A stretch of 59,300 bases of DNA, taken from positions 1-59,300 of the forward strand of contig JABCYU010000001.1 in the NCBI GenBank assembly GCA_013290045.1, read 5' to 3'. The position numbers and the translations under genes were made by a program. The notes under the pieces are model-generated. The model saw nothing but the letters and a program-made list of their open reading frames with translations. It was not told where the DNA came from and ran no database searches. This document shows positions 2,053 to 54,856 of this stretch, in pieces; the first letter of the stretch is position 1; every line of letters starts with the position of its first letter. This DNA comes from Methanobacteriota archaeon (GTDB lineage: Archaea > Thermoplasmatota > Thermoplasmata > Lutacidiplasmatales > UBA184).

Positions 2053-2171
2053 CGGGCGTCGCGGGGGGGAAAGGGCAGCCCCGTAAATCGGGAGCGAACC
2101 GAGGCTCCGGGGACCGGGGCCCGTGTGCCAAGGACGTTGATCGCGGTGCGCGGCGCGGCGCCCACCCCGAG

Positions 2172-2180
2172 GGTTTAAGG
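2172..2180 (+). promoter_or_regulatory. TATA-like box GGTTTAAGG upstream of the PolD large subunit gene
   Basis: An A/T island in GC-rich DNA centred about 28 nt upstream of the GTG at 2204. This spacing fits a leaderless archaeal transcript. Confidence 0.4.
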
Positions 2181-2203
2181 AACGGGAGGGGACTGGGCGG
2201 GCC

Positions 2204-19959: not shown

Positions 19960-20001
19960 CGTTGGGGGGAACCCCGTCGGGGCCAAAACGGGGCGGTCCG
20001 G

Positions 20002-24349: not shown

Positions 24350-27142
24350 CTACGAGCAGCCGCTCGTCGACCCGCAGACGGTGCACGCGTAGCACGTCCC
24401 GGAGCGGACCATGATGCCCCCGCAGTTCGAGCACGAGGGGGAGTCCTCCTGGCTGCTGCCGCGCGTGAGCGCGTCCTCCCCGAACGCATCGAGGGGCTTC
24501 GTCTCGAACTTCACCGTCTGGGCCGACGTGGGCTTCGCCGAGGGCACCGCCGCGGCGTGGCCGCCGCCGTTCCCCTCCGACGGGTTCTCGAGGCCGATCG
24601 CCCGACGGTCCTCCTCGGTGAGGAACTCGATCGCCATCCAGCGAGCGACGTAGTCCGGGATGGATTTCGCGAAGCGGACCTTCGGGTTGTTGGTGGCCCC
24701 CGCCGGTTCGAACCGCATGTGGGCGAGCTTGCGGACGAGGTCCTTGAGCGGCACTCCGTGCTGGAGGGCCATCGACATGGAGATCCCGAGGGAGTCCATG
24801 AGGCCGTTCACCGTCGAGCCTTCCTTCGTGACGCGGAAGAACAATTCGCCCGGCCGACCGTCGGGGTAGAGGCCGACGGTGACGTAGCCGTCGTGGCCGC
24901 CGACCTGGAAGTGATGGGTGATCGCCTTCCGTTCGTCCGGCAATCGCTCGCGCGCCGGGCCACGGACCCCGGGGGTCGCGACGGCGGTCCGTCCCTTCCC
25001 GGTCTCGTAGGGTTGGGATGCCTTGCAGCCGTCGCGGTACAATGCGATCGACTTGACGCCGAGCTTCCAACCTTCGAGGTAGATCTTCTCGATGTCCTCC
25101 ACGGTCGCGTCGTTCGGCAGGTTGATCGTCTTCGAGGCGCCCCCAGATAGGAACGGCTGGACCGCTCCCAGCATCGATAGGTGACCCATCGGGGCGATCG
25201 TCCGGACCCCCGCCGCCGGGGCGAGCGCGCAGTCGAAGACGGCGAGATGCTCGGCCTTGAGCCCGGGCGCTCCCTCGATCGTGCCGGCCGTTTCCACGTG
25301 CTGGCGGATCTTGGCGATCTCCTCGGCCCCGTAGCCCAGCGCCACGAGCGCCTCCTCGGCGGTGCGGTTGACCATCCGCATCGTTCCGCCGCCGACCAGG
25401 TTCTTCGTCTTGACGAGCGAGAGCTCCGGCTCGATCCCGAGCGTGTCGCAGCCCATCAAGAGGCCGATCGTCCCCGTCGGGGCGATCACGGAGATCTGGG
25501 CGTTCCGGTAGCCCCAGAGCTCTCCGGCCTTCGCGGTGTCGTGCCAGCGGTCCCGGGCGGCCTCGACGTAGCGGGTCACGCGCGGGTCGTTGAGCGGGAT
25601 CTGGTCGGCCGCATGGGTGTGCTTCCCCATCACGCGCAGCATCGGCGAGCGGTTCTTGTCGAACCCGGGGAACGGGCCCATGCGGCGGGCGATCTCCGCG
25701 GACATGTGGTAGCCTTCCGCCGAAAGGAACGCGCTCACGCCCGCCGACAGGGTCCGGGCCGCGTCGGAATCGTACGGCAGCCCGTAGTGCATGATGAGGG
25801 AGCCCAGGTTGGCGTAGCCGAGGCCGAGGGGCCGGAAGTCGTGGGAGTTCTGGGCGATCGGCCCGGTGGGGTAGCTCGAGGCGTCGACGAGGATCTCCAT
25901 GGCGAAGATCATCGTGCGGACCGCCTCCTGGAACAGGTCGAGGTCGAATTGGCCCTTCGCGTCCAGGAACCGCATCAGGTTGATCGACGCGAGGTTGCAC
26001 GCCGTGTCGTCGAGGAACAGGTACTCGCTGCACGGGTTGGACGCATTGATGCGCCCGGACATCGGGCTCGTGTGCCAGTCGTTCGTGACGTCGTCGTACT
26101 GGACCCCGGGATCGCCGCAGCGCCACGCGGCGTAGGCGAGCTTGCGCCACAGATCGCGGGCCTGGTAGGTGTTGGCGACGGAGTGGTCGGTGCGGTTGTA
26201 GGTCTTCCAGACGCCGTCCTTGACGACGGCCTCCATGAACGCGTCCGGGATCCGGACCGAGTGGTTCGCGTTCTGGTAGGCGATCGACGCGTAGGCGCTG
26301 TCGGGGTCGGTGCCGTCGAAGTTCGGGGAATACCCCTCGCGGATCAACGCGTAGGCCTTGTCCTCCTCGCGGACCTTGCACTCGATGAAGTCGACGATAT
26401 CCGGGTGGTCCATGTTCAGGATCACCATCTTGGCGGCCCGGCGCGTCGTCCCGCCGGACTTGATGACGCCCGCCATGGCGTCGAAGGCGCGCATGAAGGA
26501 GACCGGGCCGCTCGCGATCCCTCCGCCGGAGAGCCGCTCGTGGCTCCCCCGCAGGTTCGACAGGTTCGAGCCGGTCCCGCTCCCGCCCTTGAACAGCCGT
26601 CCCTCGCTCGTCGCGAGCGCCAGGATGGAGTCCATGTCGTCCGAGACGGCCTGGATGAAGCACGCCGAGCATTGGGGGGGCTGCCGGACGCCGACGTTGA
26701 ACCAGACGGGGCTGTTGAACGCGGCCATCTGGTGGACCATGAGGTAGGAGAGGCTCTCCTCGAGGAGCGTCGACTCTTCCGCGGTGTCGAGGTAGCCGAG
26801 CTCGAGGCCCCGCTCGGCGATCCAGTGGGTGACGCGACGGATCATCCCGTCGACGGAGCTCTCCCGGTGTCCGTTGATGACCCGGAAATATTTCGACGCC
26901 GCGATGTTGATCGCGTTGTCGGACCAGTTCGCCGGCGCGCGGATCCCGCGCTGCTCGAAGATCACCTTGCCGTCGGCGTTCTTGATCACCGAGTCGTGGC
27001 TGCGCCACTCGACGGTGTCGAACGCGGTCTTGCCGCGAGGCACGAGGCGGGGGATCGGAATCGGTTCGCGTCCCAACCGGGTCGGCGATCGGTTGACCGT
27101 CTCCTCGGGAGGCGACGAGGCGCGCTTCTTTGCTGTGGCCAT
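24350..27142 (-). CDS. nrdJ: Adenosylcobalamin-dependent (class II) ribonucleotide reductase with C-terminal zinc ribbon
   Basis: 930 aa with INIAASKYFR...FNSPVWFN...CSACFI...GGSGTGSNLSNLRG...NPCSEYLFLDDTACNLASINL, and the tail CSNCGGIMVRSGTCYACTVCGSTSGCS. Confidence 0.92.
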   Translation of the reverse strand: MATAKKRASSPPEETVNRSPTRLGREPIPIPRLVPRGKTAFDTVEWRSHDSVIKNADGKVIFEQRGIRAPANWSDNAINIAASKYFRVINGHRESSVDGMIRRVTHWIAERGLELGYLDTAEESTLLEESLSYLMVHQMAAFNSPVWFNVGVRQPPQCSACFIQAVSDDMDSILALATSEGRLFKGGSGTGSNLSNLRGSHERLSGGGIASGPVSFMRAFDAMAGVIKSGGTTRRAAKMVILNMDHPDIVDFIECKVREEDKAYALIREGYSPNFDGTDPDSAYASIAYQNANHSVRIPDAFMEAVVKDGVWKTYNRTDHSVANTYQARDLWRKLAYAAWRCGDPGVQYDDVTNDWHTSPMSGRINASNPCSEYLFLDDTACNLASINLMRFLDAKGQFDLDLFQEAVRTMIFAMEILVDASSYPTGPIAQNSHDFRPLGLGYANLGSLIMHYGLPYDSDAARTLSAGVSAFLSAEGYHMSAEIARRMGPFPGFDKNRSPMLRVMGKHTHAADQIPLNDPRVTRYVEAARDRWHDTAKAGELWGYRNAQISVIAPTGTIGLLMGCDTLGIEPELSLVKTKNLVGGGTMRMVNRTAEEALVALGYGAEEIAKIRQHVETAGTIEGAPGLKAEHLAVFDCALAPAAGVRTIAPMGHLSMLGAVQPFLSGGASKTINLPNDATVEDIEKIYLEGWKLGVKSIALYRDGCKASQPYETGKGRTAVATPGVRGPARERLPDERKAITHHFQVGGHDGYVTVGLYPDGRPGELFFRVTKEGSTVNGLMDSLGISMSMALQHGVPLKDLVRKLAHMRFEPAGATNNPKVRFAKSIPDYVARWMAIEFLTEEDRRAIGLENPSEGNGGGHAAAVPSAKPTSAQTVKFETKPLDAFGEDALTRGSSQEDSPSCSNCGGIMVRSGTCYACTVCGSTSGCS

Positions 27143-27485
27143 GGGAGATTACTCCTACCGGAGGGTGAGAGGACGAGTGGCCGCTTGCCGCCGGCGAAGA
27201 TACCACGCGCCGTGTCCCTTAAGGTCCCCCCCCACCCGCGAGGTGAAACGGCTCGCCGTGGGGCCGTTTCGACGTGGGGGAAGGGACTCCGGAACGCGAG
27301 CGCGGGCACCCTCCACACCCGTTGCGGACCCTCCGGGTCGCGCGTAGCGTGTTCGGCTATATCTGGGATGTGCCGGACTCGCCCGACGGATCTCGCCGCG
27401 GGGGGTTTTTCGCCCGGCCTCGCGCGACGCGCCGCTCGTCAGAGGAACTCGAAGCGCATGCGGGAAACCGTTCGGCAGGAACGGT

Positions 27486-38813: not shown

Positions 38814-41800
38814 CAGGCCGCTCCCGCCGCGGCGGAGATCGCTTCCGCCATCTCGAGCTCGAGGGCGTCGAACGAGGCGGCCAGCTCCTTCTCCGGGATC
38901 GACTTCATGCGCGAGAGCTTCGAACGGACGGGGAGCTTGTTGAGGGCGCTGACCGTCGCGCCCTTGCCGATCGCGTCCTGCTCCTGGTCCCCGAACGAGA
39001 GGATCGCGCGGAGCATGCGGTACTGCTTGCCGATCGAGGTGTACGTATCGACGTCGTCGTACGCGCTCTGCTGCAGGTAGTCCTCGCGCAGCATCTTCGC
39101 CACGTCCAGGACGCCCTTCTCCCGCTCCGGGAGCGCGTCGACGCCGACGAGCTGGACGATCTCCTGCAGCTCGGACTCCTTCTGGAGGACCTCGAGGGCC
39201 TTCTGGCGGAGCGGGATGAACTCCTTCGCCAGGTTCGCGCGGAACCACGGCTCGAGGTCGCCGACGTAGAGCGAGTAGCTGTTCAGCCAGTTGATCGACG
39301 GGAAGTGGCGGCGCGAGGCGAGCGAGGCGTCCAGGGCCCAGAAGACCCGCGTCACGCGCAGCGTGTTCTGGCTCACCGGCTCGGAGAAGTCGCCGCCCGG
39401 CGGGGAGACCGCCCCGACGACGGTCACGGACCCTGGCCGACCCTCGGGTGAGAGCGTGACGACGCGCCCGGCGCGCTCGTAGAACTCGGCGATCCGGCGT
39501 CCGAGGTACGCCGGGTATCCCTCCTCGCCGGGCATCTCCTCGAGTCGTCCGGAGATCTCGCGCATCGCCTCGGCCCACCGGCTCGTCGAGTCGGCCATGA
39601 GGGCGACGTCGTAGCCCATGTCCCGGTAGTACTCGGCGATGGTGATGCCCGTGTAGACGCTCGCCTCCCGGGCGGCGACGGGCATGTTGGAGGTGTTGGC
39701 GATGAGGATCGTCCGCTCCATCAGCGGCCGGCCCGACTTCGGGTCCTGGAGGTTCGGGAAGGTGGCGAGCACCTCCGTCATCTCGTTGCCCCGCTCCCCG
39801 CAACCGACGTAGACCACGATGTCGGAGTCGGCCCACTTCGCGAGCTGCTGCTGCGTCACGGTGTTGTGGAGCAGCAGCGCACCATGGCCACCGACGAAGT
39901 TGGCGCCGAAGTCGGGGAGCGAGACGTCGTAGACATCGTATGGTCCTTCGCGCTCCTGGACCACGTCGAGGATCTCGTCGCAGTAGAGCGTGTCCAGTAG
40001 CCCCGCGAGGCGCGTGGCCACGGGCTCCGTTGCGTCCAGGTCAGCACCACCCGCCGGCGGGGCGTTGAGGAAGTTCTGGAAGGTGGCGGCTCCCATCCGC
40101 TCGCGGTTGCCGATGTAGTTGTGGATCTCGATACCCGATGCGGAAAGATCGCGGTACCGGAAATTGGAGCGGTAGATCCGCTCGAGGGTCTCCGGGGCAA
40201 GTGGTACGACATCGGTCGCGGTGTACGACGCGTGCTTCGAGGCGACATACTCGCGGATCCCGGCCACCTTCGGGGCATCGGATCCCATGGCCCGCTCGAG
40301 CCGCGTGAGGTTGGCGATTCCCCGGACGAAGACCCGGTAGTAGGGGGTCCCATCGACCCAGCGCTGGGCCATGGAAGAGACGATCCCGAACCGGGAGAGG
40401 GCGTACACGAGCTCGGTCTGAAGACGCGCGCTGGCCGTGCAGAACTCGATCTCGCCACCGGACAGGCCACCGTCCCCGAGGTAGTAGGCGCGCAGGAACG
40501 CACCCAACGACTCGTCGGAGGACCGGAGGACCGTGGCCGGCAACCGTTTCTCTTTCGAGCTCCGGCCCGTGCCGAGCGCGTCGAGCAGGCGGACCAGCGA
40601 GATGCTGTGGAGGAGCACGTTGGGCGTCTTGGTCGGCTGGCGCTCGACCCGTCCGTCGATGCCGAACAGCTCCTTGGCGAGTTGGCGGAATCGGCCGAGC
40701 AGCTCCTCCTCGGAATTCGTGTAGACGACCGTGCGGTCCCCTCGAACGTAGCCCTCGGCCACGAAATGACCGAGGAATTCGGCGAGTTCGGGGGACATCC
40801 GGGTGGGGACCTTCAGGAGGTTCCCGCGACGACGGAGCTTGGGCAACTCGATCCCGAGGACGGCGTTGCGGCCCGGCCCCGGCAGCTGGCGCACGGAAGC
40901 GACGTAGTCCCCCGGACGGAGGTCCTTCGCCATCGTCTCCCGAACTGCGCCGTCGGGGCCGATGATGAACAGGCGGTGGACGGGCGTCAGTCGAACGTGC
41001 CGTCCCGTCCGAGTTCGGACCCGGATCAACGAGTCGCTCTTGCCCTTGTAGAACGTCCGGCTCTCGCTGGGGACGAGCCGGTCCCCGACCAGCGACAGGA
41101 GCCGGATCGGTTCTCGGAGGTGGTACCATTCATCGGATCCGTCGTCGGTCCGTTCCCCATGCTGCTGCGCCCACCGGTAGAGTTCCTCCATGGGGAGGAT
41201 TCGGCCCCCGGAAAGGAGGACCGGCGTGTCGCCGGCGACGCATTTCCCCGACCCGAAAGGTCCGGGGATACAAGCAGCTCCGCCCTTGGCGACCGGGAAG
41301 AACGTGTCGATGACGCGCTGGCCCGTGATGAGGGGAATCCCCGGGGCGAGCTTCTGCTTGACCGGCCGGGGGATCCGGACGACCCACTTCTGGACGAGCG
41401 TGACGGGCTGGCTGCCGGCCGAGGTCTTGATCGAGCCGATCGGTTCGCGGATATTGTACGACCCGCTCGACAGTTTCTCGAGCGTCCCGTTCACTCCGGG
41501 CGCGACCATGATTTTGTGGAGGATGAGCGGGGTCTCCTGGACGGTGCCGAGGATCGCGCCCGGGGAGACCACGCTCCCGACCTTCGCCGTCGCCGTGAAC
41601 TCCCACTTCTTGGTCTCGTCGAGCGCCGCGGCGGAGAACCCGCGGGTGATGAAGTCCCCGAGGTTCTTCTTCAGGACGTCCAGCGGGCGCTGGACCCCGT
41701 CATAGATCGAGGTCAGGAGCCCGGGGCCCAGCTCCACCGACAGCGCTTGGCCCGTGTTCTCGACCGGATCGCCCGGCCGGACGCCGGTCGTGTCCTCGTA

Positions 41801-41947
41801 GACCTGGACGGTCGCCGAGTCCCCGACGAGCTTGATGATCTCCCCGACCAGGCCGAGCGTCCCGACGCGGACGACATCGAACATCTTCGCCCCGGTCAAC
41901 CCTTCGGCGATGACAACGGGTCCAGAAACGCGGCCCACGACTCCCAT
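38813..41947 (-). CDS. atpA: A-type ATP synthase catalytic subunit A, interrupted by an intein (584-aa extein plus 460-aa intein)
   Basis: 1044-aa ORF. The P-loop GPFGSGK is followed by CVAGDT...GALLLHN and then resumes [32 protein letters not shown]. Confidence 0.95.
39863..41242 (-). mobile_element. Intein in the AtpA P-loop (VMA-a site) with a LAGLIDADG homing endonuclease domain
   Basis: Residues 236-695 of AtpA. N-terminal Cys (TGC at 41242-41240), block [18 protein letters not shown]-type motifs [13 protein letters not shown] and [12 protein letters not shown]-terminal HN (39868-39863), then Thr +1. Confidence 0.9.
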
Positions 41948-41962
41948 CTTCTTCCTCCCGGA

Positions 41963-42756: not shown

Positions 42757-42862
42757 GGGTTTCGCCCGGAGGGCCGTCGACGCGCGTTCTCCTCGAGGAT
42801 TCGGGCGTTTCACCGGCTCTGCGTTGCGGCCTTGTAGCGCCCGGTGGGTGACCTCGGAGGCG

Positions 42863-43630
42863 ATGGGCGAGGTCGTCCTCGGGACCAGCGGGTGGGACTA
42901 CCCGGAGTGGGTCGGGCGGGTCTATCCGCGTCACGGTCCGCTCGATCGCCTGAAGTTCTACACGGAGCTGTTCCCGATCGTCGAGGTCAACACCACCTTC
43001 TACCGGCTCCCGCCGGTCGGCGTCGTGGCTTCGTGGGCGCGTCGCACGCCGCGACGCTTCCGGTTCTCCGCGAAGTTCCCCCAGACGATCACCCACGAAC
43101 GTCGTCTCGTCGGGGCGGCCGAGGAGCTTCACCGGTTCCTCGAGGTGATCCAGCCGCTCCGCGACGCGGGCAAGTTCGCCGCTGCCTTGCTCCAGCTCCC
43201 CCCATCGCTCGCGTTCGACCCTCGGATGGTCCGGGCGTTCTACGAGATCCTGCCGCGGGACCTTCCGGTGGCGGTCGAGTTCCGCGAGTCCAGCTGGAGG
43301 TCGCCGGAATCGTTCGCCCTCCTGAGGGAGTTCGGACTCGCCTACGTGGTGGTCGACGAACCGTTCCTCCCGATCGAGCTCGAGGTCACCGCCCCGTTCT
43401 GCTACGTGCGATGGCACGGCCGCGGCGAACCGCTCTGGTACGACTACACCTACTCGGCGGAGGAGATCGCCGAGTGGGTCCCGAAGGTCCGATCGCTGCA
43501 GGAACGGGTCGGGACCGTCTACGGCTTCTTCAACAACCACTTCCGCGGCGACGCCGCGGTCAACGCCCAGAGCCTGACGGAGCTACTGGGACTTCCACCG
43601 CCCCCGTGGAGCTCTCGGCTGGACCGGTAA
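42863..43630 (+). CDS. DUF72 family protein
   Basis: Contains MGEVVLGTSGWDYPEWVGRVYP...FYTELFPIVEVNTTFYRLP...FRFSAKFPQTITHE...VEFRESSW...YVRWHGR...FFNNH. Confidence 0.85.
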   Translation: MGEVVLGTSGWDYPEWVGRVYPRHGPLDRLKFYTELFPIVEVNTTFYRLPPVGVVASWARRTPRRFRFSAKFPQTITHERRLVGAAEELHRFLEVIQPLRDAGKFAAALLQLPPSLAFDPRMVRAFYEILPRDLPVAVEFRESSWRSPESFALLREFGLAYVVVDEPFLPIELEVTAPFCYVRWHGRGEPLWYDYTYSAEEIAEWVPKVRSLQERVGTVYGFFNNHFRGDAAVNAQSLTELLGLPPPPWSSRLDR

Positions 43631-45672: not shown

Positions 45673-45814
45673 GCCGGGCCGTCCCGTTCGACGTAACGGG
45701 GTGCGTCAGGCCCGGCGTCCCCGGACGGAAACGCCGTCCTTCCGCCCCGTTTCCGTCCCTCCCGCCGGGTCCTTAACGGTCGGAATCCGCGTCCACCGAC
45801 CGAGGTGATCTCGC

Positions 45815-46696
45815 GTGCTCGACCCGCTCGATGCGCTGGCCATCGACCCGGTCGATCTCTCCGACCTCACGGAGGAGACGCCGTTCGTCGGGCCGGAACT
45901 GCCGCCGACGCGACCGGAGCGGGTCGAGCCGATCCCCTCGTCGGTGCGGATCCCGCGGGGCCGTCCGCTCCGCCACCGCTCGACGTTCCCGAACTCCCCG
46001 CCGCTCGTGCACTGGCTCGGCCGGCACCTGACGCCGGGCGAGGCGACCGTATGGGTCGGCTCGCCCGCGACGCTCGACCCGCTGCTGGAGCTGTTCTACG
46101 CCGGCGTCGCGCGCGCCGGGGGGCGCCTCTCGCTCATCGAGGGCGCCAACCGGTTCCAGCCGTACCGGATCGGCGAGACGGGCCGCTCGCTCGGGATCGA
46201 TCCGGGCCGGCTGCTCGACCGCATCCGGCTCGCCCGGGCGTTCACGGCCTACCAGCTCGTCGCGCTGGTCGACGGATGGGCGTCGGAGGCCCGCCGGCGC
46301 CGCCCGACGGTCCTCGTCGGCCACGATCTCCCGGCGCTGTTCGAGACCGCCGAGGTCCCGGAGGACGAGCGCGCCCCGCTCCTCACCCACGTCGCCGAGA
46401 CGCTCCGCGCGACGCTGCGCGCGGTGCCGGTGCCGCTCGTCCTGACGCTCACCCGGGGGTTCTCCGAGTTCCCGGGGCTCACCGACCGCGGTCCGCGCCT
46501 GTTCGACCTGATCCGCGTCGGCGCCCGTCGCGACGACTGGAAGCTGGAGGCGCTCCGCGACGGCTCGCGCCTGACCGTCGTCCCCCGGCCGGCCGGCCAG
46601 TGGGGGCTCGAGGAGTTCGGGTCGACCGGCCCGGAGGAGGTGACCGCGTGGGCCGCACAGTTCCAACGTACCGCCAGGCGCTTGAGGAGCGGATGA
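45815..46696 (+). CDS. RadA/RadB-like RecA-fold protein with a degenerate Walker A (predicted non-ATPase)
   Basis: 293 aa, with GAGGTGAT 5 nt upstream of the GTG. Contains GEATVWVGSPATLDPLLELFYAGVARAGGRLSLIEGANRFQPYRI...LDRIRLARAFTAYQLVALV...PTVLVGHDLPALF. The P-loop position reads GSPATLDP rather than GxxGxGK[T/S]. Confidence 0.65.
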   Translation: MLDPLDALAIDPVDLSDLTEETPFVGPELPPTRPERVEPIPSSVRIPRGRPLRHRSTFPNSPPLVHWLGRHLTPGEATVWVGSPATLDPLLELFYAGVARAGGRLSLIEGANRFQPYRIGETGRSLGIDPGRLLDRIRLARAFTAYQLVALVDGWASEARRRRPTVLVGHDLPALFETAEVPEDERAPLLTHVAETLRATLRAVPVPLVLTLTRGFSEFPGLTDRGPRLFDLIRVGARRDDWKLEALRDGSRLTVVPRPAGQWGLEEFGSTGPEEVTAWAAQFQRTARRLRSG

Positions 46697-46917
46697 AACG
46701 CTGGGAGGCGTTCGGGCGCCTCCTCACGAGCCCCGAGGAGCGGGCGGCGTTCGAGCAGCTCGTCACCGGGGCCCGGCGCTACGCGGCGCAGGCGACGTAC
46801 GTCGGGAGCCCCGACCTCCTCGAATCGATCCTCCTCTCCGTCCTCCTGGACCTCTCCCGCCGGATGGCGCCGGTCCCGGATCCGGACGGGTCCCCGGTCG
46901 CGCCGTTGCGGGAGTGA
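46648..46917 (+). CDS. Small helical hypothetical protein, 89 aa (74 aa if it starts at the ATG at 46693)
   Basis: GGAGGTGA lies 4 nt upstream of the GTG at 46648. The alternative ATG at 46693 forms an ATGA overlap with the upstream stop. Contains ...MKRWEAFGRLLTSPEERAAFEQLVTGARRYAAQATYVGSPDLLESILLSVLLDLSRRM... Confidence 0.5.
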   Translation: MGRTVPTYRQALEERMKRWEAFGRLLTSPEERAAFEQLVTGARRYAAQATYVGSPDLLESILLSVLLDLSRRMAPVPDPDGSPVAPLRE

Positions 46918-46942
46918 CCGCCCTCCCGCGCCGGAGGGACGG

Positions 46943-49240
46943 TTGAGCGACGCCTGGCTGCTCGACATCACCGAGGACCGGCGGGGCCACGACGTCGTCC
47001 TCTGGCTGAAGGACGACGGCCCGGACGGCCGCGTGCGCCCGGTGCGGCGCCCGTTCCGGCCGCCGTTCCTCGTCGACGGACCGCGCGAGCACCTGAAGGC
47101 CATCGCGAAGCGGTTCACCGGCGCCCCGGACGTGGCGACGATCGAGTGGCGGACCGAGCGCCCGTCGATCTTCGATCGGCGGCCGCGGCGCCTGCTCTCG
47201 ATCACCCCGGAGCGGAACGACCGGCGCCGCCGCGTGGCGACGGCCGTCGACGCGTTCGGCGGGTACCACCGGGGGACGCTCTACGACGTCGACCTCGCGC
47301 CGCCCCAGCTCTACCACCTGGCGTTCGGCCTCTACCCGTTCGCCCCGGTGCGGGAAGAGGGGGAGCGGTACGTCGCGACCCTCCCGGCCGAGGCGATCGA
47401 CTACCCGTTGCCCCCACTGCGCGTCGCGCGGCTCGCCGCCGAGCTCGCCGGGGTGCGGCGCGGCGGGATTGTCCGCGGCGATCCCCCGCTCGCGGCGGTC
47501 GTCGTCGGCGACGCCCGCATCGAGGGAGCGGAGCCGGAACTGTTCGATGAAGTGATGGCCGAGCTCGCCCGCCAGGACCCCGACATCCTCCTCACCGACG
47601 ACGGCGACGGGTTCGATCTCCCGTGCCTGTACCGCCGTGCGGCGGCGCTGGGTCGATCGGAGGAGGAGTTCTTCCTCGGACGCGAACCCGTGTCGTTCCG
47701 GCCGGCGCGGCCGGCCCGGTCGTTCGCCACCTACGGCCAGGTCCTGCACCGCGAGGCGTCGTTCCCGCTCCCGGGGCGGTTCCACCTCGACCGGGAGAAC
47801 TCGTTCCTGTACGGCGACGCGGCGATCGACGGGCTCATCGACGCGGCGAGGCTCTCGCGCCTCTCGCTGCAGACGGTCGTGCGCCAGTCGCCGGGGACGT
47901 GCTTCACCGCCATGGAGATGGCCCACGCCCTCGAGGGAGGCGCCCACGTCCCGTTCCGCAAGAACCGGCCGGAGGAGTTCAAGTCGGCCCACCGGCTCGT
48001 CGAGGCCGACCGCGGTGGCGTGATCTTCCTCCCGCCGGTCGGGGTCCACGACCGGATCGACGAGTTCGATTTCGCGAGCCTGTACCCGCACATCATGGTG
48101 CGGCACAACCTGTCGACGGAGACGCTCAACTGCCGGTGCTGCCCGAAGAGCCCCGAGGTCGTCCCCGGCCTGGGCTACCGCTCCTGCGTCCGCCGGACGG
48201 GGCTCATCCCGACCACGTTGGAACCGCTCCTCGCCCGGCGGCTCGCCTACAAGGCGGCGATCAAGCGGCCCGGGACGCCCCCCGCCGAGGTCGAGCGGCT
48301 CAAACGCCGCGTGAAGATGCTCAAGTGGATCCTCGTCACCGCCTTCGGCTACCAGGGCTACCGCAACGCCCGGTTCGGCCGCATCGAGTGCCACGAGGCG
48401 ATCAACGCCTACGCCCGGGAGCTGATCGTCCGCCTCGTCCGCCACGCCGAGGAGCGGGGCTACCGGGTCGTCCACGGGATCGTCGACTCGCTCTGGCTCG
48501 CGCCCCGGGACCCGGCGAAGTGGCCGGACGCCGAGGCGTTCGCGCGGTCGGCGAGCGAGGAGTTCGACCTGCCGCTCGGCTACGAGGGCCGCTACCGCTG
48601 GATCGTCTTCCTGCCGTCGGTGACCGGGATCGGCGTGCCGAACCGGTACTACGGCCTCTACGAGAGCGGGGCGTTCAAGCTTCGGGGCGTCGGGTCGCGC
48701 CGGCACGACACGCCGCTCCTCCTGCGCCGGTTCGAGGGGGAGATCCTCGATATGATGAAGCGGGCGCCGGACGCGCCGGCGGTGCTCCGCCTCCTCCCGC
48801 GGCTCCTGGCGCGCACCGACCGGTTCGCCGAGCAGCTGAAAGAGCGGCGCTGGCCGGTCGAGGAGCTGCTCATCACCCACCGGCTGAGCCAGGAGGTGTC
48901 GGCGTACGTCACGTTCACCGACAGCGTCGCCGCGATGCGCCAGTTGGCCGACGCCGGCGTGACCCGGATGCCGGGCGAGTCGGTGCGGTTCGTCGTGCGC
49001 GACCGCCGATCGCGCTCGTGGCGCGACCGGGTCCGCGTCGCGGAACTGCTCGAACCGGACGACGACTACGACGTCGGGGCGTACCTGGAGCTGATGGCCC
49101 GCAGCGCCGAGACGCTCCTCGCGCCGCTCGGGGTGAAGCGCGCGGCGCTCCTCGAGCGGTGGGGGGTGGCGCCGGCACCGGAGCGCGACCGGTACCGCTC
49201 GGTCGAGGGCCGGGCGCAGCGGGCGCTCCCCGTCGCGTAG
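46943..49240 (+). CDS. polB: Family B DNA polymerase, PolB2-like, with degenerate exonuclease motifs and motif C
   Basis: 765 aa, TTG start with GGAGGG 4 nt upstream. Motif A is FDFASLYPHIM. Motif B is KMLKWILVTAFGYQGY. Motif C reads HGIVDS where YGDTDS is expected. The Exo I position reads RLAAEL. Exo II is partly retained (DGDGFDLPCLY). Confidence 0.85.
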   Translation: MSDAWLLDITEDRRGHDVVLWLKDDGPDGRVRPVRRPFRPPFLVDGPREHLKAIAKRFTGAPDVATIEWRTERPSIFDRRPRRLLSITPERNDRRRRVATAVDAFGGYHRGTLYDVDLAPPQLYHLAFGLYPFAPVREEGERYVATLPAEAIDYPLPPLRVARLAAELAGVRRGGIVRGDPPLAAVVVGDARIEGAEPELFDEVMAELARQDPDILLTDDGDGFDLPCLYRRAAALGRSEEEFFLGREPVSFRPARPARSFATYGQVLHREASFPLPGRFHLDRENSFLYGDAAIDGLIDAARLSRLSLQTVVRQSPGTCFTAMEMAHALEGGAHVPFRKNRPEEFKSAHRLVEADRGGVIFLPPVGVHDRIDEFDFASLYPHIMVRHNLSTETLNCRCCPKSPEVVPGLGYRSCVRRTGLIPTTLEPLLARRLAYKAAIKRPGTPPAEVERLKRRVKMLKWILVTAFGYQGYRNARFGRIECHEAINAYARELIVRLVRHAEERGYRVVHGIVDSLWLAPRDPAKWPDAEAFARSASEEFDLPLGYEGRYRWIVFLPSVTGIGVPNRYYGLYESGAFKLRGVGSRRHDTPLLLRRFEGEILDMMKRAPDAPAVLRLLPRLLARTDRFAEQLKERRWPVEELLITHRLSQEVSAYVTFTDSVAAMRQLADAGVTRMPGESVRFVVRDRRSRSWRDRVRVAELLEPDDDYDVGAYLELMARSAETLLAPLGVKRAALLERWGVAPAPERDRYRSVEGRAQRALPVA

Positions 49241-49371: not shown

Positions 49372-50856
49372 GTGACCGGACGTTCGCGCCGGCCCAGCGT
49401 CCGGGACCGCGGCCGGGACCGGGAGCCGGCGACCCCCGCCGCCCGCCTCGCCGAGATCAAGGCGATGTCGGAGGAGGGGGGAACGGTCGACGTCGACCGC
49501 CTGGTCCGGTGGCTCTCCGACCCCGATCCGCTCGTCCGGCAGGGATCGGCGTGGGTCTTGGGAGCGAAGGTGGAGCGTCGCGGACGCGCGGCGCTGGAGG
49601 CCGCGCTCAACGACCCGTCGAACCGGGTCCGCGCGACGGCCGTCGAATCGCTGGGCGCGCTACGGGCCCCGGAGAGCCGCATCGCGCTCGAGCTCTCGCT
49701 CCGCGACCCGGACGCCCGGGTCCGATCCCAGGCGGCGTGGGCGGTCTGGGCGCTCGACGACAGTCGTTCCGGGGCCGCGATGCTGCCGCTTGCCGTCGAC
49801 CCCGACCCGGCGGTCCGCCAGGGGGCCGCGGCGGCGCTCGGGCGACTGCAGCCGAAGGGCGCGTACGAGCGGCTCACGATCCTATTGAGCGACGTCAACG
49901 ACCGCGTCCGACGCCAGGCGGTCTACGCGCTGGGCGGGTTCCGAAGCCCGCGGACCGCGTCGCTCGTTCGACCGATGCTCGCCGACCCCGCGCTGCGCGT
50001 CCGCATCGCGGCCGCCGGGATCCTCGGCCGGTGCCGCGACGTCGAGTCGGTGGGGCCGCTCCTCGACCGATTGCGCCACGACGACGCGTGGATGAAACCG
50101 GCGATCCTGGTCGCCCTCGGGCAGATCGGCGACCGCACGGCGCTCCCGGAGATCACCGCCGCGGTCGACGACCCGGCGGGATGGTCCCGGGTCTGCGCGC
50201 TGCACGCGCTTCGGGCGATGAAGGACCCGACCTCCCGAAACGCGGTCCGCCCGAAACTGCACGATCCCCTATGGTCGGTGCGCGGGGCCGCGGCCGAATG
50301 CCTCGGAGCCGTCGGCGGCCCGGACGACCTCGCGCTCCTCCTCGAGACCCTCGAGGACCTCCACCCGTGGCCCCGACGCGGGGCGATCTACGCGCTCGGG
50401 GCCCTCGGACTCACCGAGGCCGCGCCGAGGATCCGCGAGGAGCTGCGCCACACCGACGCCGAGATCCGTCTCGCGGCGGTCTGGGCGTTGGGCCGGCTCC
50501 GCGACGACGGGGCCCGCGAGGCGATCGCCGCGCTGCTCCGCCAATCGCACCCGGCCCGGGGCGAGCGCCCGACGCTCGCCGAGGGGGAGGGGGCGGTGCG
50601 GCTGCTCAGCGACGCCGAGGACCGTCTGTTCGATTCCGCCGTCCAGGCGCTCGGGCGGTTGAGCCAGGGCGAGTTCGATCCCGTCGTCGCCCGCGCCCTG
50701 CTCGAAGCCCGATCGCGCGTGCCGGACGACGAGCTCGAGCGGCTCGCCCGGCTCCCGACCCCCGAGCAATCCGTGAGCGGCACTCCTCCCACGCTCCGAC
50801 TGGTCTTCGAGACGGCCCTGCCGGCGGCGGTCGATGAGGACGAGCTGGGATGCTGA
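49372..50856 (+). CDS. HEAT (PBS-lyase-like) repeat protein
   Basis: About 11-12 repeats of the type DPDPLVRQGSAWVLG / DPSNRVRATAVESLG / DPALRVRIAAAGILG. The GTG at 49372 gives an Arg-rich N-terminus with G/C third positions; an alternative ATG lies at 49465. It is the in-frame 3' part of track ORF 47623..50856. Confidence 0.8.
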   Translation: MTGRSRRPSVRDRGRDREPATPAARLAEIKAMSEEGGTVDVDRLVRWLSDPDPLVRQGSAWVLGAKVERRGRAALEAALNDPSNRVRATAVESLGALRAPESRIALELSLRDPDARVRSQAAWAVWALDDSRSGAAMLPLAVDPDPAVRQGAAAALGRLQPKGAYERLTILLSDVNDRVRRQAVYALGGFRSPRTASLVRPMLADPALRVRIAAAGILGRCRDVESVGPLLDRLRHDDAWMKPAILVALGQIGDRTALPEITAAVDDPAGWSRVCALHALRAMKDPTSRNAVRPKLHDPLWSVRGAAAECLGAVGGPDDLALLLETLEDLHPWPRRGAIYALGALGLTEAAPRIREELRHTDAEIRLAAVWALGRLRDDGAREAIAALLRQSHPARGERPTLAEGEGAVRLLSDAEDRLFDSAVQALGRLSQGEFDPVVARALLEARSRVPDDELERLARLPTPEQSVSGTPPTLRLVFETALPAAVDEDELGC

Positions 50857-51788
50857 GGGACCTTCGGAAGGCCGAGGTCGGGCAGTTCAACACGCTCATC
50901 ACCCGCGAGTTCCCGCAGGAGGGAGCGCTGCTGGGGATCGATGTCGACGCCCAGCGTCGGATCCTGGCACGCGCGTTCCAGCCCCTGTTCCGATTCCTCC
51001 TGGGTTTCGCCCGTCTCGTTCGCCACCCGATCGTCCGGTTCTTCGTCGTGGAATCGGAGGGCCGGGTCGCCGCGACGGCCGTCCTGTCGTACGGCCGGCG
51101 GGCCGGCTACATCGGGGCGGTCAGCGTCGACCCGGCGTTCCGACGGCGGGGACTCGGGCGCCAGGTGATCGGGGGGTGCGCGGCGGACGCGAAGGCGACG
51201 GGCCGCGAGTTCGTCGTCCTCGACGTCATCCACGACAACGCCCCGGCGCAGGCGCTGTACCGATCGGTCGGCTACCGACCGCTGCGGACCGGGGCGTTCC
51301 TCCGCAAGGATCTCGCGGCGCGACCGGCCCCGCTCCCCCGACCGCCGGGGGTCCGGCCCCTCCGCCGTAGCGACCGCAAACCGTTGGCCGCGATCGCGGC
51401 CGCCGCCCTGCCCCCCGAGGTCGCGAGGATCCTGCCGGTCGAGCCGGGGTCGTTCACCCTGGCGCCGGTGATCGTCCGGTTCCTCGAGTCGGAGACGGAG
51501 GCGTGGGTGATAGATGACGGCCGCGGACCCGTGGCGTTCCTGCGGGGCACGGTCGGCCGGGCGATGCAATCCGGCAACCTGACCTCCCCCATCCTCGCCC
51601 CGGACCTGTCGACGGAGCGGTCGCTCGAGTTCCTCCGGTACGCCGAATCGTGGCTCGCCTCGAAAGGGGTCCCGAGGGCGGTCGTCGAGCAGTGGAGCGA
51701 CCCTCCGAGGGTCATCGACCTGCTCCGGTCGGGAGGGTGGGTCGAGGCGATCCCGATCGACACCCTCTACCTGCCGCTCCATGCGTGA
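50850..51788 (+). CDS. GNAT family N-acetyltransferase with an extra C-terminal domain
   Basis: 312 aa. The ATG overlaps the HEAT gene stop. Contains IGAVSVDPAFRRRGLGRQVIGGCAADAKATGREFVVLDVIHDNAPAQALYRSVGYRP. Confidence 0.8.
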   Translation: MLRDLRKAEVGQFNTLITREFPQEGALLGIDVDAQRRILARAFQPLFRFLLGFARLVRHPIVRFFVVESEGRVAATAVLSYGRRAGYIGAVSVDPAFRRRGLGRQVIGGCAADAKATGREFVVLDVIHDNAPAQALYRSVGYRPLRTGAFLRKDLAARPAPLPRPPGVRPLRRSDRKPLAAIAAAALPPEVARILPVEPGSFTLAPVIVRFLESETEAWVIDDGRGPVAFLRGTVGRAMQSGNLTSPILAPDLSTERSLEFLRYAESWLASKGVPRAVVEQWSDPPRVIDLLRSGGWVEAIPIDTLYLPLHA

Positions 51789-53094
51789 CCCGGCCGGTAC
51801 TACTCACATCGACGTCTACCTTTTTCCGGCGGCGATCGGAGGCGGCCGGGGCGACATCGACGAGGTGCTCGTCGCCGGTCGGGTCCTCGAGGGGGCGGGG
51901 GCGCGGGTGCGGATCCTCCGCCTCGGAGGGCGGTCGCTCCCCGGAGCGGCGGCCGATCTCGGGAGCTGGCCGCGGTTCTCCCGGGTCGGCCGGATCCGAT
52001 CTTCCCGAGGCTGGGCGATCACCGTGAGCCCGTCGTGGGGGGTGACCGCGGCCCCGCGCCGTCCCGGCCGGCTCGGCGGGGCCGGTCCGTGGGCCCCCGA
52101 ATCCGCGGAAGTGGAGCGGTGCTATGGGCCCGAGCGCACCGTTCATGTGAGCTTCGAGGAGTTCGCCCGAACCCTGTCGAGCCGGGCGCAGACGATCGAG
52201 CGCTACCGGGAGGGGGGCTGGACGCGCCCGCAGATCCGGCGGCTCACCCGGACCCGCCGGTTCCGGCGGGAGGTCGCCGAGTTCCGCGTCGCGTACCGGC
52301 GGTTTCGGGCGTTCGAGGTCCCGAACGTCCTGTCCGTGTTTCCCGGCTTCGTTCGGTCCGAAGTGTTCGGGCGCGAATTCCCCCGAGCCATCCAGACCGG
52401 CCCGCTCTGGCCGGGCCGATTCCCCCGGAGGATCGGTCGGATCCCCTCGAGGTGGCTCTGGTACGTCAATTCGCCTTCTGCCACCCGCCTCGTGCCGGGC
52501 CTCCGTACCGGACTCTCCGGGCCGGGTCCACCCGTCCGGGTCGGGATCCGGGGTCGTCTGGCGCCCCATCCCGGGATCTCGACCGAAGGTCCGTGGCGGA
52601 TCCTTCCGGCGATGAGCCCCCAACGCTGGGAGCGTCGGTTCGCCACAGCGGGGGTGCGGATCGTCACTGGGAGCCGCAGCCTCCTGGACGCACTCGAGGC
52701 TGGCGGCCCGTTCCTCTACTTCAACGGAGTGACGGGCGACGGCCGGAGGACGCGCCGGCACCGGCCGGAGAAGCTCCAGCAGCTGTTGCGCGTCTTCGCG
52801 GCGGCTGGCGGGCCGCCGGCGAGGGTGAGGGACCTCAGGTCGTTCGCCCTGGCTCGGCGGGTTCCCCAGATCGTCGGGGCGGCTCGCACCCCGGAGTGGC
52901 AGCTCGGGTTCCCTCGAACGGTCCGGGTCCAGGGGTACCTTCCGCCGTTCGACTCGGCCAACTCGTGGCTCGTCGATCTCCTCCGGCACGTCCGGAGGGC
53001 GGCGGCCGAGGGCGGTAGCGCCTCGAGTTTGGTAGCCGAGCTCCGGCGGGGTTCGCATGGCCGGCGCCCGTCCGGCTCCTCCGGGAAGGTCTAA
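51781..53094 (+). CDS. Arg-rich hypothetical protein; possible EarP/DUF2331-like GT-B glycosyltransferase homolog
   Basis: 437 aa. The ATG overlaps the GNAT stop, and third positions are G/C throughout. IDVYLFPAAIGGGRGDIDEV and WRILPAMSPQRWERRFATAGVRIVTGSRSLLDALEAGGPFLYFNG...HRPEKLQQLL resemble the EarP signature stretches as I remember them. The functional call is tentative. Confidence 0.6.
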   Translation: MRDPAGTTHIDVYLFPAAIGGGRGDIDEVLVAGRVLEGAGARVRILRLGGRSLPGAAADLGSWPRFSRVGRIRSSRGWAITVSPSWGVTAAPRRPGRLGGAGPWAPESAEVERCYGPERTVHVSFEEFARTLSSRAQTIERYREGGWTRPQIRRLTRTRRFRREVAEFRVAYRRFRAFEVPNVLSVFPGFVRSEVFGREFPRAIQTGPLWPGRFPRRIGRIPSRWLWYVNSPSATRLVPGLRTGLSGPGPPVRVGIRGRLAPHPGISTEGPWRILPAMSPQRWERRFATAGVRIVTGSRSLLDALEAGGPFLYFNGVTGDGRRTRRHRPEKLQQLLRVFAAAGGPPARVRDLRSFALARRVPQIVGAARTPEWQLGFPRTVRVQGYLPPFDSANSWLVDLLRHVRRAAAEGGSASSLVAELRRGSHGRRPSGSSGKV

Positions 53095-53118: not shown

Positions 53119-54228
53119 ATGGCCCCCGAGGAGGCGGCCCCTTCTGCGGTCGCCGAAGTCCTCCTCGGCCCGGCGCTCCGCCTACGTCGCGGGGAGAACG
53201 TCATCATCGAGAGCTGGAGCCACACGCTTCCCTACGCCTCCGCCTGCGTCGTCGAGGCGCGGCGTATCGGCGCCCACCCGATGCTCCTGCTCGAGGAAGA
53301 GGCGGCGTTCTGGGAGAGCCTCGACCGCGTTCCCTCGACGTCGTGGGTGAGCGGCGTCGGAGCGCACGAGTGGGCGGCGCTCGGAAAGACCCACGCCTAC
53401 GTCTTCTTCCCTGGCCCCTCGGACCGGCCCCGGCTCCGGGCGCTGCCCAAATCGAGGAGCCGGGACGTCGTGACATCGAACGACGAGTGGTTCCGCCGCG
53501 CCCGCTCCGCGAAGCTGCGGGCGGTGCGGAGCGTGCTCGGGTACGCCTCGGACCCGCAGGCGGCCCACTGGGGGGTCTCCGGGGCGGCGTGGCGGAGCGC
53601 CCTCGCGCAGGCCACCGTCGGCGTCGACTACCGGGTGCTGCAGCAGGAGGCGCAGCGCGCCGCGGCGAAGATCCAATCGGGGTCGACGTTGCGGATCACC
53701 GCGTCGAACGGCACGGACGTGAGCGTGAAGCTCCGGCACCGTCGTCCCTCGGTCGACGACGGGGTCGTCTCCCCGCAGGACGTGCGCGACGGCGAGGTCA
53801 TGACCGTCTCGCCTCCCGGGACCGTCGTCGTCGCCATCGACGAGAAGTCCGCGGATGGGGTGGCGATCGCCAACCGGCCGAGCTTCCTGAGGTCGGGAAG
53901 GGTCGAGGGCGGCCAGTGGGAGATGAAGGCGGGCCGGCTGACGAACTTCTGGTACACGGATGGACAGGGGGCGTTCGAGGAGTCGTACCGGGTCGCCGGG
54001 AAGGGCCGCGACGTCGTCGGGATGTTCTCCCTCGGCCTCAACCCCGCGCTCACCCCGGGGGTCCCCCAGGTCGAGGATCAGGAGGCGGGCGCCGTGACCC
54101 TGGCGATCGGCGGCAACCAGGCTCAGGGAGGCACGAACCGATCGCCGTTCATCTCGTGGATCGTCCTGGGCGAGGCGACCGTCGCCGTCGACGGCAAGCC
54201 GCTGTGCGACCGCGGAAAGCTCCTGTAG
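53119..54228 (+). CDS. M29 (aminopeptidase T/AmpS)-like metallopeptidase
   Basis: 369 aa with GENVIIESWSHTLPYASACVVEARRIGAHPMLLLEEE...ITASNGTDVSVKL...AVTLAIGGNQAQGGTN. The family call is made from memory and the sequence looks divergent. Confidence 0.7.
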   Translation: MAPEEAAPSAVAEVLLGPALRLRRGENVIIESWSHTLPYASACVVEARRIGAHPMLLLEEEAAFWESLDRVPSTSWVSGVGAHEWAALGKTHAYVFFPGPSDRPRLRALPKSRSRDVVTSNDEWFRRARSAKLRAVRSVLGYASDPQAAHWGVSGAAWRSALAQATVGVDYRVLQQEAQRAAAKIQSGSTLRITASNGTDVSVKLRHRRPSVDDGVVSPQDVRDGEVMTVSPPGTVVVAIDEKSADGVAIANRPSFLRSGRVEGGQWEMKAGRLTNFWYTDGQGAFEESYRVAGKGRDVVGMFSLGLNPALTPGVPQVEDQEAGAVTLAIGGNQAQGGTNRSPFISWIVLGEATVAVDGKPLCDRGKLL

Positions 54229-54241
54229 TCGCGCTCCCCCC

Positions 54242-54856
54242 GTGAACGTGGACGAGACGACCGCGTCGGTCGAGCGGGCGTTCGCGAAGCCGCTCCCTCG
54301 CCGGTTCTTCGACCGGCCGACCCGTCGGGTGGCGCGCGAGCTTCTCGGGAAAACGATCGTTCGGCGATCGGGAGCGCGATGGCGGGCGGCGCGGCTGGTC
54401 GAGGTCGAAGCCTACCTGGCAGGGGACCCGGCCAGTCACGCGTTCCGAGGTCCGACCCCGCGCAACGCGTCGATGTTCGGGGCGCCCGGCACGCTCTACG
54501 TCTTCCGGATCCACCAGGTCGTCTGCGCGAACGTGGTGACGCAACGGGGGGAGGCGGTCCTCCTTCGGGCGGGCTCGCTGCCGGAGGGGAGTTCAGGAAA
54601 CCCTTCGGGCCCGGGGCGCCTGTGTCGGTATCTCGGGATCACCCGGTCGGACGACGGAATCGACCTCGTCCGGTCTCAGACGAGGCTATTGGACGGTCCA
54701 CCGCCGACCGAACCCGTCCGGACCGCGCCCCGGGTCGGGATCTCCCGCGCGAAGGAGCGGCGCCTCCGATACCTGCTATGGGGGAATCCGTGGGTCTCTC
54801 GTCCCCGGCCCTGGGGTCGCCGCCCGCCGGCTCAGCGGAGCTTGGCCCAGGCGTAA
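54242..54856 (+). CDS. mpg: DNA-3-methyladenine glycosylase (AAG/MPG family)
   Basis: 204 aa with a GTG start, containing [13 protein letters not shown]...[49 protein letters not shown]. Confidence 0.85.

Follow-up and report, generated by a model that had tools for sequence, protein, structure and literature searches.

We wondered what a cluster of three co-directional genes at positions 45815-49240 of a 59,300-nucleotide (nt) stretch of archaeal DNA (the window; G+C content about 70%) might encode. An earlier note on this DNA had read the cluster as a candidate damage-tolerance module made up of a recombinase paralogue that has lost its activity, a small helical adaptor and a specialised family B polymerase, and its author knew of no description of such a module. 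The functional reading agrees with the evidence presented here and with a published model. The suggestion of novelty does not stand, as the operon was published in 2013-2014 (PMC4104785) and modelled in 2025, with Thermoplasmata examples in the supplement (PMC11791011). We are highly confident that the region represents an archaeal PolB2 mutasome operon in the group 1a order, carried by an uncultured high-GC Thermoplasmata archaeon from soil or peat. The module is already known, and what we describe is a typical copy in a lineage in which the operon is catalogued. Lengths in the following lines are given in amino acids (aa).

45815..46696, plus strand: iRadA, 293 aa; Rad51/RadA fold without Walker A/B residues and without the N-terminal HhH domain
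46598..46621, plus strand: QWGLEEFG, a putative PIP-like (PCNA-interacting peptide-like) motif for clamp binding, within the iRadA C-terminal tail that is predicted to be disordered
46648..46917, plus strand: PPB2 (arCOG07300; assigned to Pfam PF26485, DUF8156, through its homologues), 89 aa, three helices, N-terminal MGRT arm (Arg3, Arg9)
46943..49240, plus strand: PolB2, 765 aa; family B polymerase with IVD for DTD, a decayed Exo I and the loop motif HLD283-R284

The three genes are adjacent in the order iRadA-PPB2-PolB2, with a 49-nt overlap between the first two and a 25-nt gap before the third. Ribosome-binding sites and starts were found where the earlier note had placed them, namely GAGGTGAT-5 nt-GTG at 45815 for iRadA, GGAGGTGA-4 nt-GTG at 46648 for PPB2 and GGAGGG-4 nt-TTG at 46943 for PolB2, and all the peptides it had quoted are present in the translations. 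The Shine-Dalgarno sequence GGAGGTGA of PPB2 is embedded in the iRadA codons E-E-V. Judging from this arrangement, iRadA, PPB2 and PolB2 are translationally coupled. For iRadA and PPB2 the strong internal Shine-Dalgarno sequence suffices to explain the coupling and no frameshift is needed. A programmed frameshift fusing iRadA to PPB2 was dropped as no slippery heptamer was seen in the 49-nt overlap.

Conservation of the trio in other genomes had been set as a test beforehand, and the trio passes it. A scan of one genome per GTDB species yielded 80 loci (L001-L080), all from Thermoplasmata and all belonging to one clade, with PolB2 identities of 62-87%. PolB2 was accompanied by iRadA in 74 and by PPB2 in 77 of these loci, and the adjacency of iRadA-PPB2-PolB2 was retained in 72-77 of the 80 genomes. 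In one Lutacidiplasmatales genome (L010, 3673-6152) an insert with two genes for membrane proteins separates PPB2 from PolB2.

The predicted operon described by Makarova, Krupovic and Koonin (2014) groups PolB2 with inactivated RadA paralogues and the roughly 90-aa helical protein arCOG07300 (PMC4104785). The operon was first reported in 2013-2014, and the early interpretation was that of an 'inactivated' PolB2 with a structural or regulatory role (PMC4104785). Timinskas, Timinskas and Venclovas (2025) gave the two partners their present names, PPB2 and iRadA, and presented a model of a 'mutasome' composed of PolB2 : iRadA : (PPB2)3 (PMC11791011). Characteristic of this mutasome are Arg3 and Arg9 in the MGRT arm of PPB2, a loop of PolB2 with a D(K/R) motif, and a PolB2 segment resembling the oligomerisation segment of RadA, by which iRadA is held. 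Clamp-binding motifs are reported on iRadA more often than on PolB2 and usually not on both, and the operon neighbourhoods are enriched for orc1/cdc6, SRAP and DUF72 (PMC11791011). Supplement rows for Thermoplasmata read 'SRAP DUF72 iRadA PPB2 PolB2', group 1a, with HGIVDSLWV (IVD) at motif C (PMC11791011). Experimental knowledge comes from Sulfolobus islandicus Dpo2 (IID at motif C), which, as summarised in PMC11791011 from work in mBio 2022, is an active extender of mismatched or lesion-paired primer termini and, by the same account, is required for damage-induced mutagenesis. Sulfolobus Dpo2 is induced by damage along with both partner genes (PMC11791011; PMC6061795). Because Dpo2 is reported to be damage-induced, active and required for damage-induced mutagenesis, the functional inference made from the three genes in the window is sound.

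The first gene had been described as a RadA/RadB-like protein of the RecA fold that has lost its P-loop, and both parts were borne out. A single iRadA sequence matched Pfam PF08423 (Rad51/RadA) weakly and below the cut-off (E=3.6e-4) and reached 15-16 bits with the NCBIfam RadA models, whose cut-offs are 259-361. A profile built from 22 iRadA homologues matched the ATPase core of P. furiosus RadA with E=9.5e-11. The AlphaFold2 model of iRadA has a mean predicted local distance difference test (pLDDT) score of 78, rising to about 90 across residues 61-260, and a Foldseek search of this model against solved structures returned RadA/Rad51/DMC1 cores as the best matches (E ~2e-10, target template modelling (TM) score 0.66-0.70). 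In the model, strand 77-81 passes almost directly into helix 84-100, and G82-SPATLDP fills the P-loop position. None of the 22 homologues carries GK[TS] at this position, and the Walker B Asp of RadA pairs with an invariant His170 of iRadA in the profile alignment. Thus, iRadA has the RadA/Rad51 ATPase-core fold without the nucleotide-binding residues. With neither a Walker A GxxGxGK[TS] nor a Walker B Asp, gene 1 was not accepted as an active RadA/RadB recombinase. Residues 1-60 are predicted to be disordered and are poorly conserved, which is why we regard iRadA as lacking the HhH domain.

The tail of iRadA (residues 261-293) is also predicted to be disordered. It holds the motif QWGLEEFG, and the pattern Q-x-G-[LIM]-[ED]-x-[FY]-x is found at this position in all 22 homologues. 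The motif resembles QSHLEAFG, which one Thermoplasmata row of the published supplement lists as the PCNA motif of iRadA (PMC11791011). The C-terminus of PolB2 shows QxxL only, without a fuller clamp motif. Elsewhere in the window, the open reading frame (ORF) of the PolD subunit DP2 (2141-5569) encodes QTTLELYG at 5480-5503, about 20 residues before the C-terminus. This sequence and the iRadA tail share Q-x-x-L-x-x-[FY]-G, which suggests a local form of the PCNA-binding box.

For the second gene the earlier note had left two starts open, GTG 46648 and ATG 46693. The former is supported and the latter is not. PPB2 homologues are 84-92 aa long, and their N-terminus (M/V)GRT(V/A)PTYRQALEER is invariant in 20 of 20 aligned sequences; the protein in the window begins with MGRTVPTYR and so contains both Arg3 and Arg9. 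In addition, the 49-nt iRadA/PPB2 overlap is kept exactly in 72 of 74 related loci. The invariant N-terminus, this overlap and the embedded Shine-Dalgarno sequence identify GTG 46648 as the start. JGI and Logan gene calls begin PPB2 at the internal ATG 46693, which gives a protein of 74 aa that has lost the MGRT arm. As the arm is the key contact with PolB2, iRadA and DNA in the published model, modelling or expression should use the 89-aa PPB2. The predicted monomer consists of helices 8-25, 29-52 and 55-73 behind a free N-terminal arm.

The third gene had been called a family B polymerase with an intact motif A, and this was confirmed by a profile of 20 PolB2 homologues that aligned with KOD-/9°N-type archaeal PolB structures at E=4e-51 and kept Asp376. 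The best NCBIfam models were short 'type B' families (408 and 369 bits), and 'DNA polymerase I' models scored 104-133 bits. Residues 1-401 are 33% identical to the PolB2 of Thermoplasmata archaeon M9B2D from the published supplement (E=3e-79), colinear from residue 1 (PMC11791011). The catalytic motifs compare as follows with those of solved PolB structures.

Motif A: D-F-R-S-L-Y-P in solved PolB, D376-F-A-S-L-Y-P in PolB2 here; Asp retained
Motif B: K-I-L-A-N-S-x-Y-G in solved PolB, K461-W-I-L-V-T-A-F-G in PolB2 here; Lys retained, Asn replaced by Val
Motif C: Y-S-D-T-D in solved PolB, H-G-I513-V-D515 in PolB2 here; first Asp lost, second retained
Exo II: G-D-N-F-D in solved PolB, G-D-G-F-D225 in PolB2 here; Asp retained
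Exo I: D-x-E in solved PolB, unaligned in PolB2 here; no conserved acidic pair past the PPL motif

Exo III was judged by eye only (F288...D292). The motif C stretch in the window reads HGIVDSLWL. The readings of motif B, motif C and Exo I in the earlier note agree with this alignment, which gives IVD for DTD and no conserved DxE. Its phrase 'degenerate catalytic motifs' is correct as a description of the motifs and is not to be taken as a sign of an inactive enzyme: the motif A Asp and the second motif C Asp, both metal-binding, are kept. Asp376, Asp515 and Lys461 are invariant across the PolB2 family alignment. In sum, PolB2 is a family B polymerase that has both metal-binding Asp residues and lacks the first DTD Asp and an intact Exo I. 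Further along the alignment, a conserved S260-F-x-T-Y264-G265 precedes D283, which never varies, and R284, which varies very little. HLD283 aligns with the HLD of a catalogued PolB2, and we took this site as the putative D(K/R) loop motif.

Several points weigh against the identification as a mutasome operon. The putative stoichiometry, PCNA binding, translesion activity and damage induction of the system are carried over from Sulfolobus experiments and published models. Foldseek found no significant match for the PPB2 model among solved structures (ECF sigma factors appeared only among matches with E >4), and Pfam and NCBIfam searches of gene 2 gave no match with either start codon. Its assignment to PF26485 (DUF8156) comes from the precomputed annotation that all listed PPB2 homologues carry. 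Lastly, neither orc1/cdc6 nor SRAP, both known as neighbours in other archaea, was seen beside the operon in a scan of the larger ORFs of the window.

How might the operon be switched on? Hexamers enriched upstream of iRadA across the loci led us to an inverted repeat, which lies in front of a TATA-like box and recurs in the window upstream of a ribonucleotide reductase gene.

45728..45753, no strand assigned: core of the inverted repeat GAAAC-N16-GTTTC, extended to CGGAAACG ... CGTTTCCG at 45727-45754; candidate operator
45771..45776, plus strand: TATA-like box CCTTAA, 17 nt past the repeat and about 40 nt before the iRadA GTG at 45815
27245..27270, no strand assigned: second inverted repeat GAAAC-N16-GTTTC, 21 nt upstream of CTTAAG and about 100 nt upstream of the reductase gene
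24350..27142, minus strand: class II (B12-dependent) ribonucleotide reductase (Pfam Ribonuc_red_lgC 8e-134, Ribonuc_red_2_N, TSCPD); candidate co-regulated gene

The exact pattern occurs twice in the 59.3-kb window, compared with 0.13 expected occurrences. Relaxing the window search to one mismatch added three sites, of which one precedes the PolD DP2 ORF by about 150 nt. We left these uncounted because mononucleotide shuffles average 2.75. Across 1.06 Mb of PolB2 loci there were 51 exact sites, 47 of which lie directly upstream of iRadA (45 in two bins around iRadA, and the displaced iRadA copies in L010 and L031). With up to one mismatch allowed, the repeat was present in 70 of 73 iRadA upstream regions vs none of 80 controls. 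A second sample of 80 metagenomic ribonucleotide reductase loci (L082-L161; 77-84% identity) showed the same preference: 48 of 51 exact sites were upstream of the reductase gene, and the repeat (up to one mismatch) was found in 59 of 67 reductase upstream regions vs 0 of 77 controls, here always with a 17-nt spacer. The flanks agree between the two sets (GAAACGSCC on the left, GTTTCA on the right). Upstream of iRadA the common layout is GAAAC(G/C)CC ... (C/T)GTTTC(A) with a spacer of 15-17 nt, followed by 15-20 nt, the box and another 30-40 nt up to the start codon. The box reads GCTTTAGAGC or CTTAAG in related loci, and CCTTAA in the window is the putative promoter of the operon. The repeat was not found before the DUF72 gene or the HEAT...MPG operon, the neighbours described below, in the PolB2 loci. 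In L010, where the operon is split, iRadA and PolB2 each have their own copy, that of PolB2 at -92, either acquired or kept.

That the repeat is common to the mutasome operon and the reductase gene suggests co-regulation by a dimeric DNA-binding protein. We tentatively propose that the two share it as a genuine operator and belong to one regulon for DNA damage, replication stress or S phase in soil/peat Thermoplasmata, a reading that we hold to be plausible and somewhat short of probable. The predicted regulator is possibly of the Orc1/Cdc6 type, given the GGAAAC/GTTTC core. No regulator gene was found beside the repeat: the gene divergent from the reductase in related loci encodes a multi-pass membrane protein and not a DNA-binding one, and the L010 insert holds its two membrane-protein genes and no regulator. 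This conserved divergent gene (340-360 aa, function unassigned) is present in many of the loci L085-L156; it starts about 230-250 nt past the repeat in the loci measured and is absent at that position in the window. A full-text literature search for the repeat and ribonucleotide reductase in archaea gave nothing relevant and no description of the repeat, which is the sole element here that may be new.

The repeat could also act as RNA, as a hairpin in the 5' leader or as a terminator of the upstream gene, rather than as an operator bound by protein. A transcript of the iRadA copy would form a fold of -19.4 kcal/mol (z = -4.8), and in many cases the spacer between the arms is itself palindromic in part. 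By contrast, folding of the reductase copy does not surpass that of shuffled sequences (z = -1.3), and two unrelated gene contexts show conservation of the 5-nt arms at the level of sequence. Moreover, the repeat is always located 15-21 nt upstream of the TATA-like box with no T-run after it, upstream of the reductase there is no co-directional gene for it to terminate, and an Rfam scan of the window gave no RNA family and hence no match for the repeat. On balance we consider an RNA hairpin unlikely, without dismissing it, and prefer a protein operator.

If the repeat is an operator, a dimeric regulator bound to it in front of the promoter would control the mutasome operon jointly with the reductase gene, and transcription would start at the TATA-like box behind GAAAC-N16-GTTTC. 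The products would assemble as PolB2 : iRadA : (PPB2)3, as modelled in the literature. In that model the RadA-oligomerisation-like loop of PolB2 would hold iRadA, one PPB2 arm would reach into the cleft near the DNA, and iRadA would tether the complex to PCNA. Without proofreading, such a complex would extend mismatched or lesion-paired primer ends after DNA damage and thereby give rise to damage-induced mutations, as reported for S. islandicus Dpo2.

The opposite view, that the trio forms a complex without enzymatic activity that serves structure or regulation, such as the control of replication or of origin use, was the interpretation of 2014 (PMC4104785) and would fit the decayed Exo I, the replaced first DTD Asp and the missing ATPase residues of iRadA. 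It is at odds with the invariance of Asp376, Asp515 and Lys461 across the family and with S. islandicus Dpo2, which has the same I-x-D and is, as relayed in PMC11791011, active and needed for damage-induced mutagenesis. Nor did the scan of larger window ORFs show an Orc1/Cdc6 gene beside the operon. We therefore regard a dead complex as very improbable and an active mutasome as the better reading.

The genes around the mutasome operon are also conserved. Upstream lies a DUF72 gene and downstream, after a gap of 131 nt that holds no inverted repeat, a tightly packed five-gene operon with 7-8 nt overlaps or 13-24 nt gaps.

42824..43630, plus strand: DUF72 gene (Pfam DUF72 E=9e-65); the true start may be ATG 42863
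49372-50856, plus strand: HEAT-repeat protein, first gene of the downstream operon
50850-51788, plus strand: GNAT protein, downstream operon
51781-53094, plus strand: 437-aa protein, function unassigned, downstream operon
53119-54228, plus strand: M29-like protein, downstream operon
54242-54856, plus strand: methylpurine/3-methyladenine DNA glycosylase (MPG), Pfam E=3e-45; TIGR00567 129 bits, over the cut-off

The glycosylase is the gene that the earlier note had named at 54242. The order DUF72-iRadA-PPB2-PolB2-HEAT-GNAT-unknown 437 aa-M29-like-MPG recurs in dozens of related Thermoplasmata genomes. Beside PolB2, HEAT was counted in 66 of the 80 loci, GNAT in 63, DUF72 in 62, the 437-aa protein in 60, M29-like in 53 and MPG in 47; all counted neighbours are co-directional, and many misses fall at contig ends. 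DUF72, where present, is upstream and often ends about 105-125 nt before iRadA. The window and its closest relative L001 have about 2.2 kb with small genes between DUF72 and iRadA, clade-specific in the window. Synteny does not prove a functional link between the HEAT...MPG operon and PolB2 because the genomes represent one clade, and shared ancestry explains the arrangement equally well. The stability of this chromosomal synteny in dozens of species-level genomes (DUF72 ... MPG, L37e, Sm), a G+C content without discontinuity beyond 0.69-0.75, a gene order equal to that of the published cellular PolB2 operon and the lack of any integrase, Cas1 or terminal repeats seen led us to drop, as having a negligible chance of being right, the idea of PolB2 as part of a mobile element (casposon, provirus or plasmid-type PolB) with its neighbours as cargo, even though family B polymerases with unusual motifs are frequent on archaeal mobile elements (PMC4104785).

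The origin of the DNA is consistent with the assignment to Thermoplasmata. The window contains the archaeal markers ribosomal protein L37e, an Sm protein, the PolD large subunit and the A subunit of an A-type ATPase, and its G+C content stays within 0.69-0.75 along its length without further discontinuity. The nearest relatives of all three proteins come from uncultured Thermoplasmata of soil and peat, including Candidatus Lutacidiplasmatales and UBA184-type genomes. A 3,046-nt contig labelled Acidimicrobiia bacterium (P0151 / P0253) encodes PPB2 and iRadA that are 75% and 60% identical to those of the window, and PolB2 of a locus labelled 'bacterium' (L051) is 67% identical. These proteins match those of the window as closely as Thermoplasmata homologues do, and both sequences are probably mis-binned Thermoplasmata, not evidence of transfer.

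Further features of the window were noted. The 59-kb stretch is rich in DNA-metabolism genes (a family X polymerase, PolD, PolB2, the reductase gene and GyrA). The family X (Pol beta-like) polymerase gene is located at 18262-20001 on the minus strand and has no exact repeat copy in front. An intein with a LAGLIDADG homing-endonuclease domain interrupts the catalytic A subunit of the A-type ATPase at 38813-41962 on the minus strand (Pfam Intein_splicing, LAGLIDADG_3). A tRNA scan found one tRNA-Arg, distant from the 45815-49240 region.

How does the operon compare with known mutagenesis systems? It shares with the published PolB2 mutasome the same three protein families in the group 1a order, a PolB2 with I-x-D for DTD, a decayed exonuclease domain and a putative D(K/R) loop motif, an iRadA reduced to a RadA core that lacks HhH and the Walker residues, the MGRT arm of PPB2, a putative PIP-like motif on iRadA and not on PolB2, and a DUF72 neighbour. 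It differs in being from a high-GC Thermoplasmata archaeon, whereas the order in S. islandicus is PPB2-PolB2-iRadA, and in having the conserved 49-nt iRadA/PPB2 overlap, the conserved downstream HEAT-GNAT-unknown-M29-like-MPG operon and the upstream repeat in common with the reductase gene, of which we found no description in the mutasome literature.

Among bacterial systems, ImuA-ImuB-DnaE2 is a three-gene damage-inducible mutagenesis cassette that combines a degenerate RecA-like protein with an error-prone polymerase. The earlier note had likened the trio to this cassette, and the likeness holds as an analogy. It does not extend to the proteins: DnaE2 belongs to family C and the archaeal polymerase to family B, and the clamp motif of the cassette lies on ImuB, an inactive homologue from the Y family, whereas gene 2 has no Y-family match. 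Pfam and NCBIfam searches identified no homologue of ImuB or DnaE2 among the three genes. The published analogy for the archaeal PolB2 mutasome is instead the E. coli Pol V mutasome, UmuD'2C-RecA (PMC11791011). Both resemble each other in outline, with a translesion polymerase that engages a RecA/Rad51-family subunit via an oligomerisation-like motif and a small subunit whose N-terminal arm lies near the active site, and Pol V is damage-inducible (PMC11791011). Unlike PolB2, Pol V is a family Y polymerase with a clamp motif of its own; its RecA is the active cellular recombinase, whereas iRadA is a dedicated inactive paralogue, and UmuD' is unrelated to PPB2.

For the repeat, the closest counterpart is the Orc1-2 element of Sulfolobales, 5'-ANTTTC-3', which PMC6061795 presents as the promoter element through which the Dpo2 operon responds to DNA damage. 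Its consensus as given there, AATAGTTTCRG, has the core GTTTC(R) in common with the half-site found here, which we take as a resemblance. According to the same paper one hexamer, 23-55 bp ahead of the ATG, makes up the Orc1-2 element, whereas the element described here is a dyad with 16-17 bp spacing that lies upstream of a TATA-like box. The term ribonucleotide reductase has 0 occurrences in the main text of PMC6061795.

As one more copy of a published operon, the finding itself adds little. The shared repeat may matter more. If it is a true operator, it would correspond in Thermoplasmatota to the SOS box of bacteria and to the Orc1-2 element of Sulfolobus. To our knowledge, DNA-damage regulation outside Sulfolobales and haloarchaea is largely unknown, and the repeat offers a concrete, testable way into the question of how translesion synthesis and the supply of deoxynucleoside triphosphates (dNTPs) are switched on in a euryarchaeal-type lineage.

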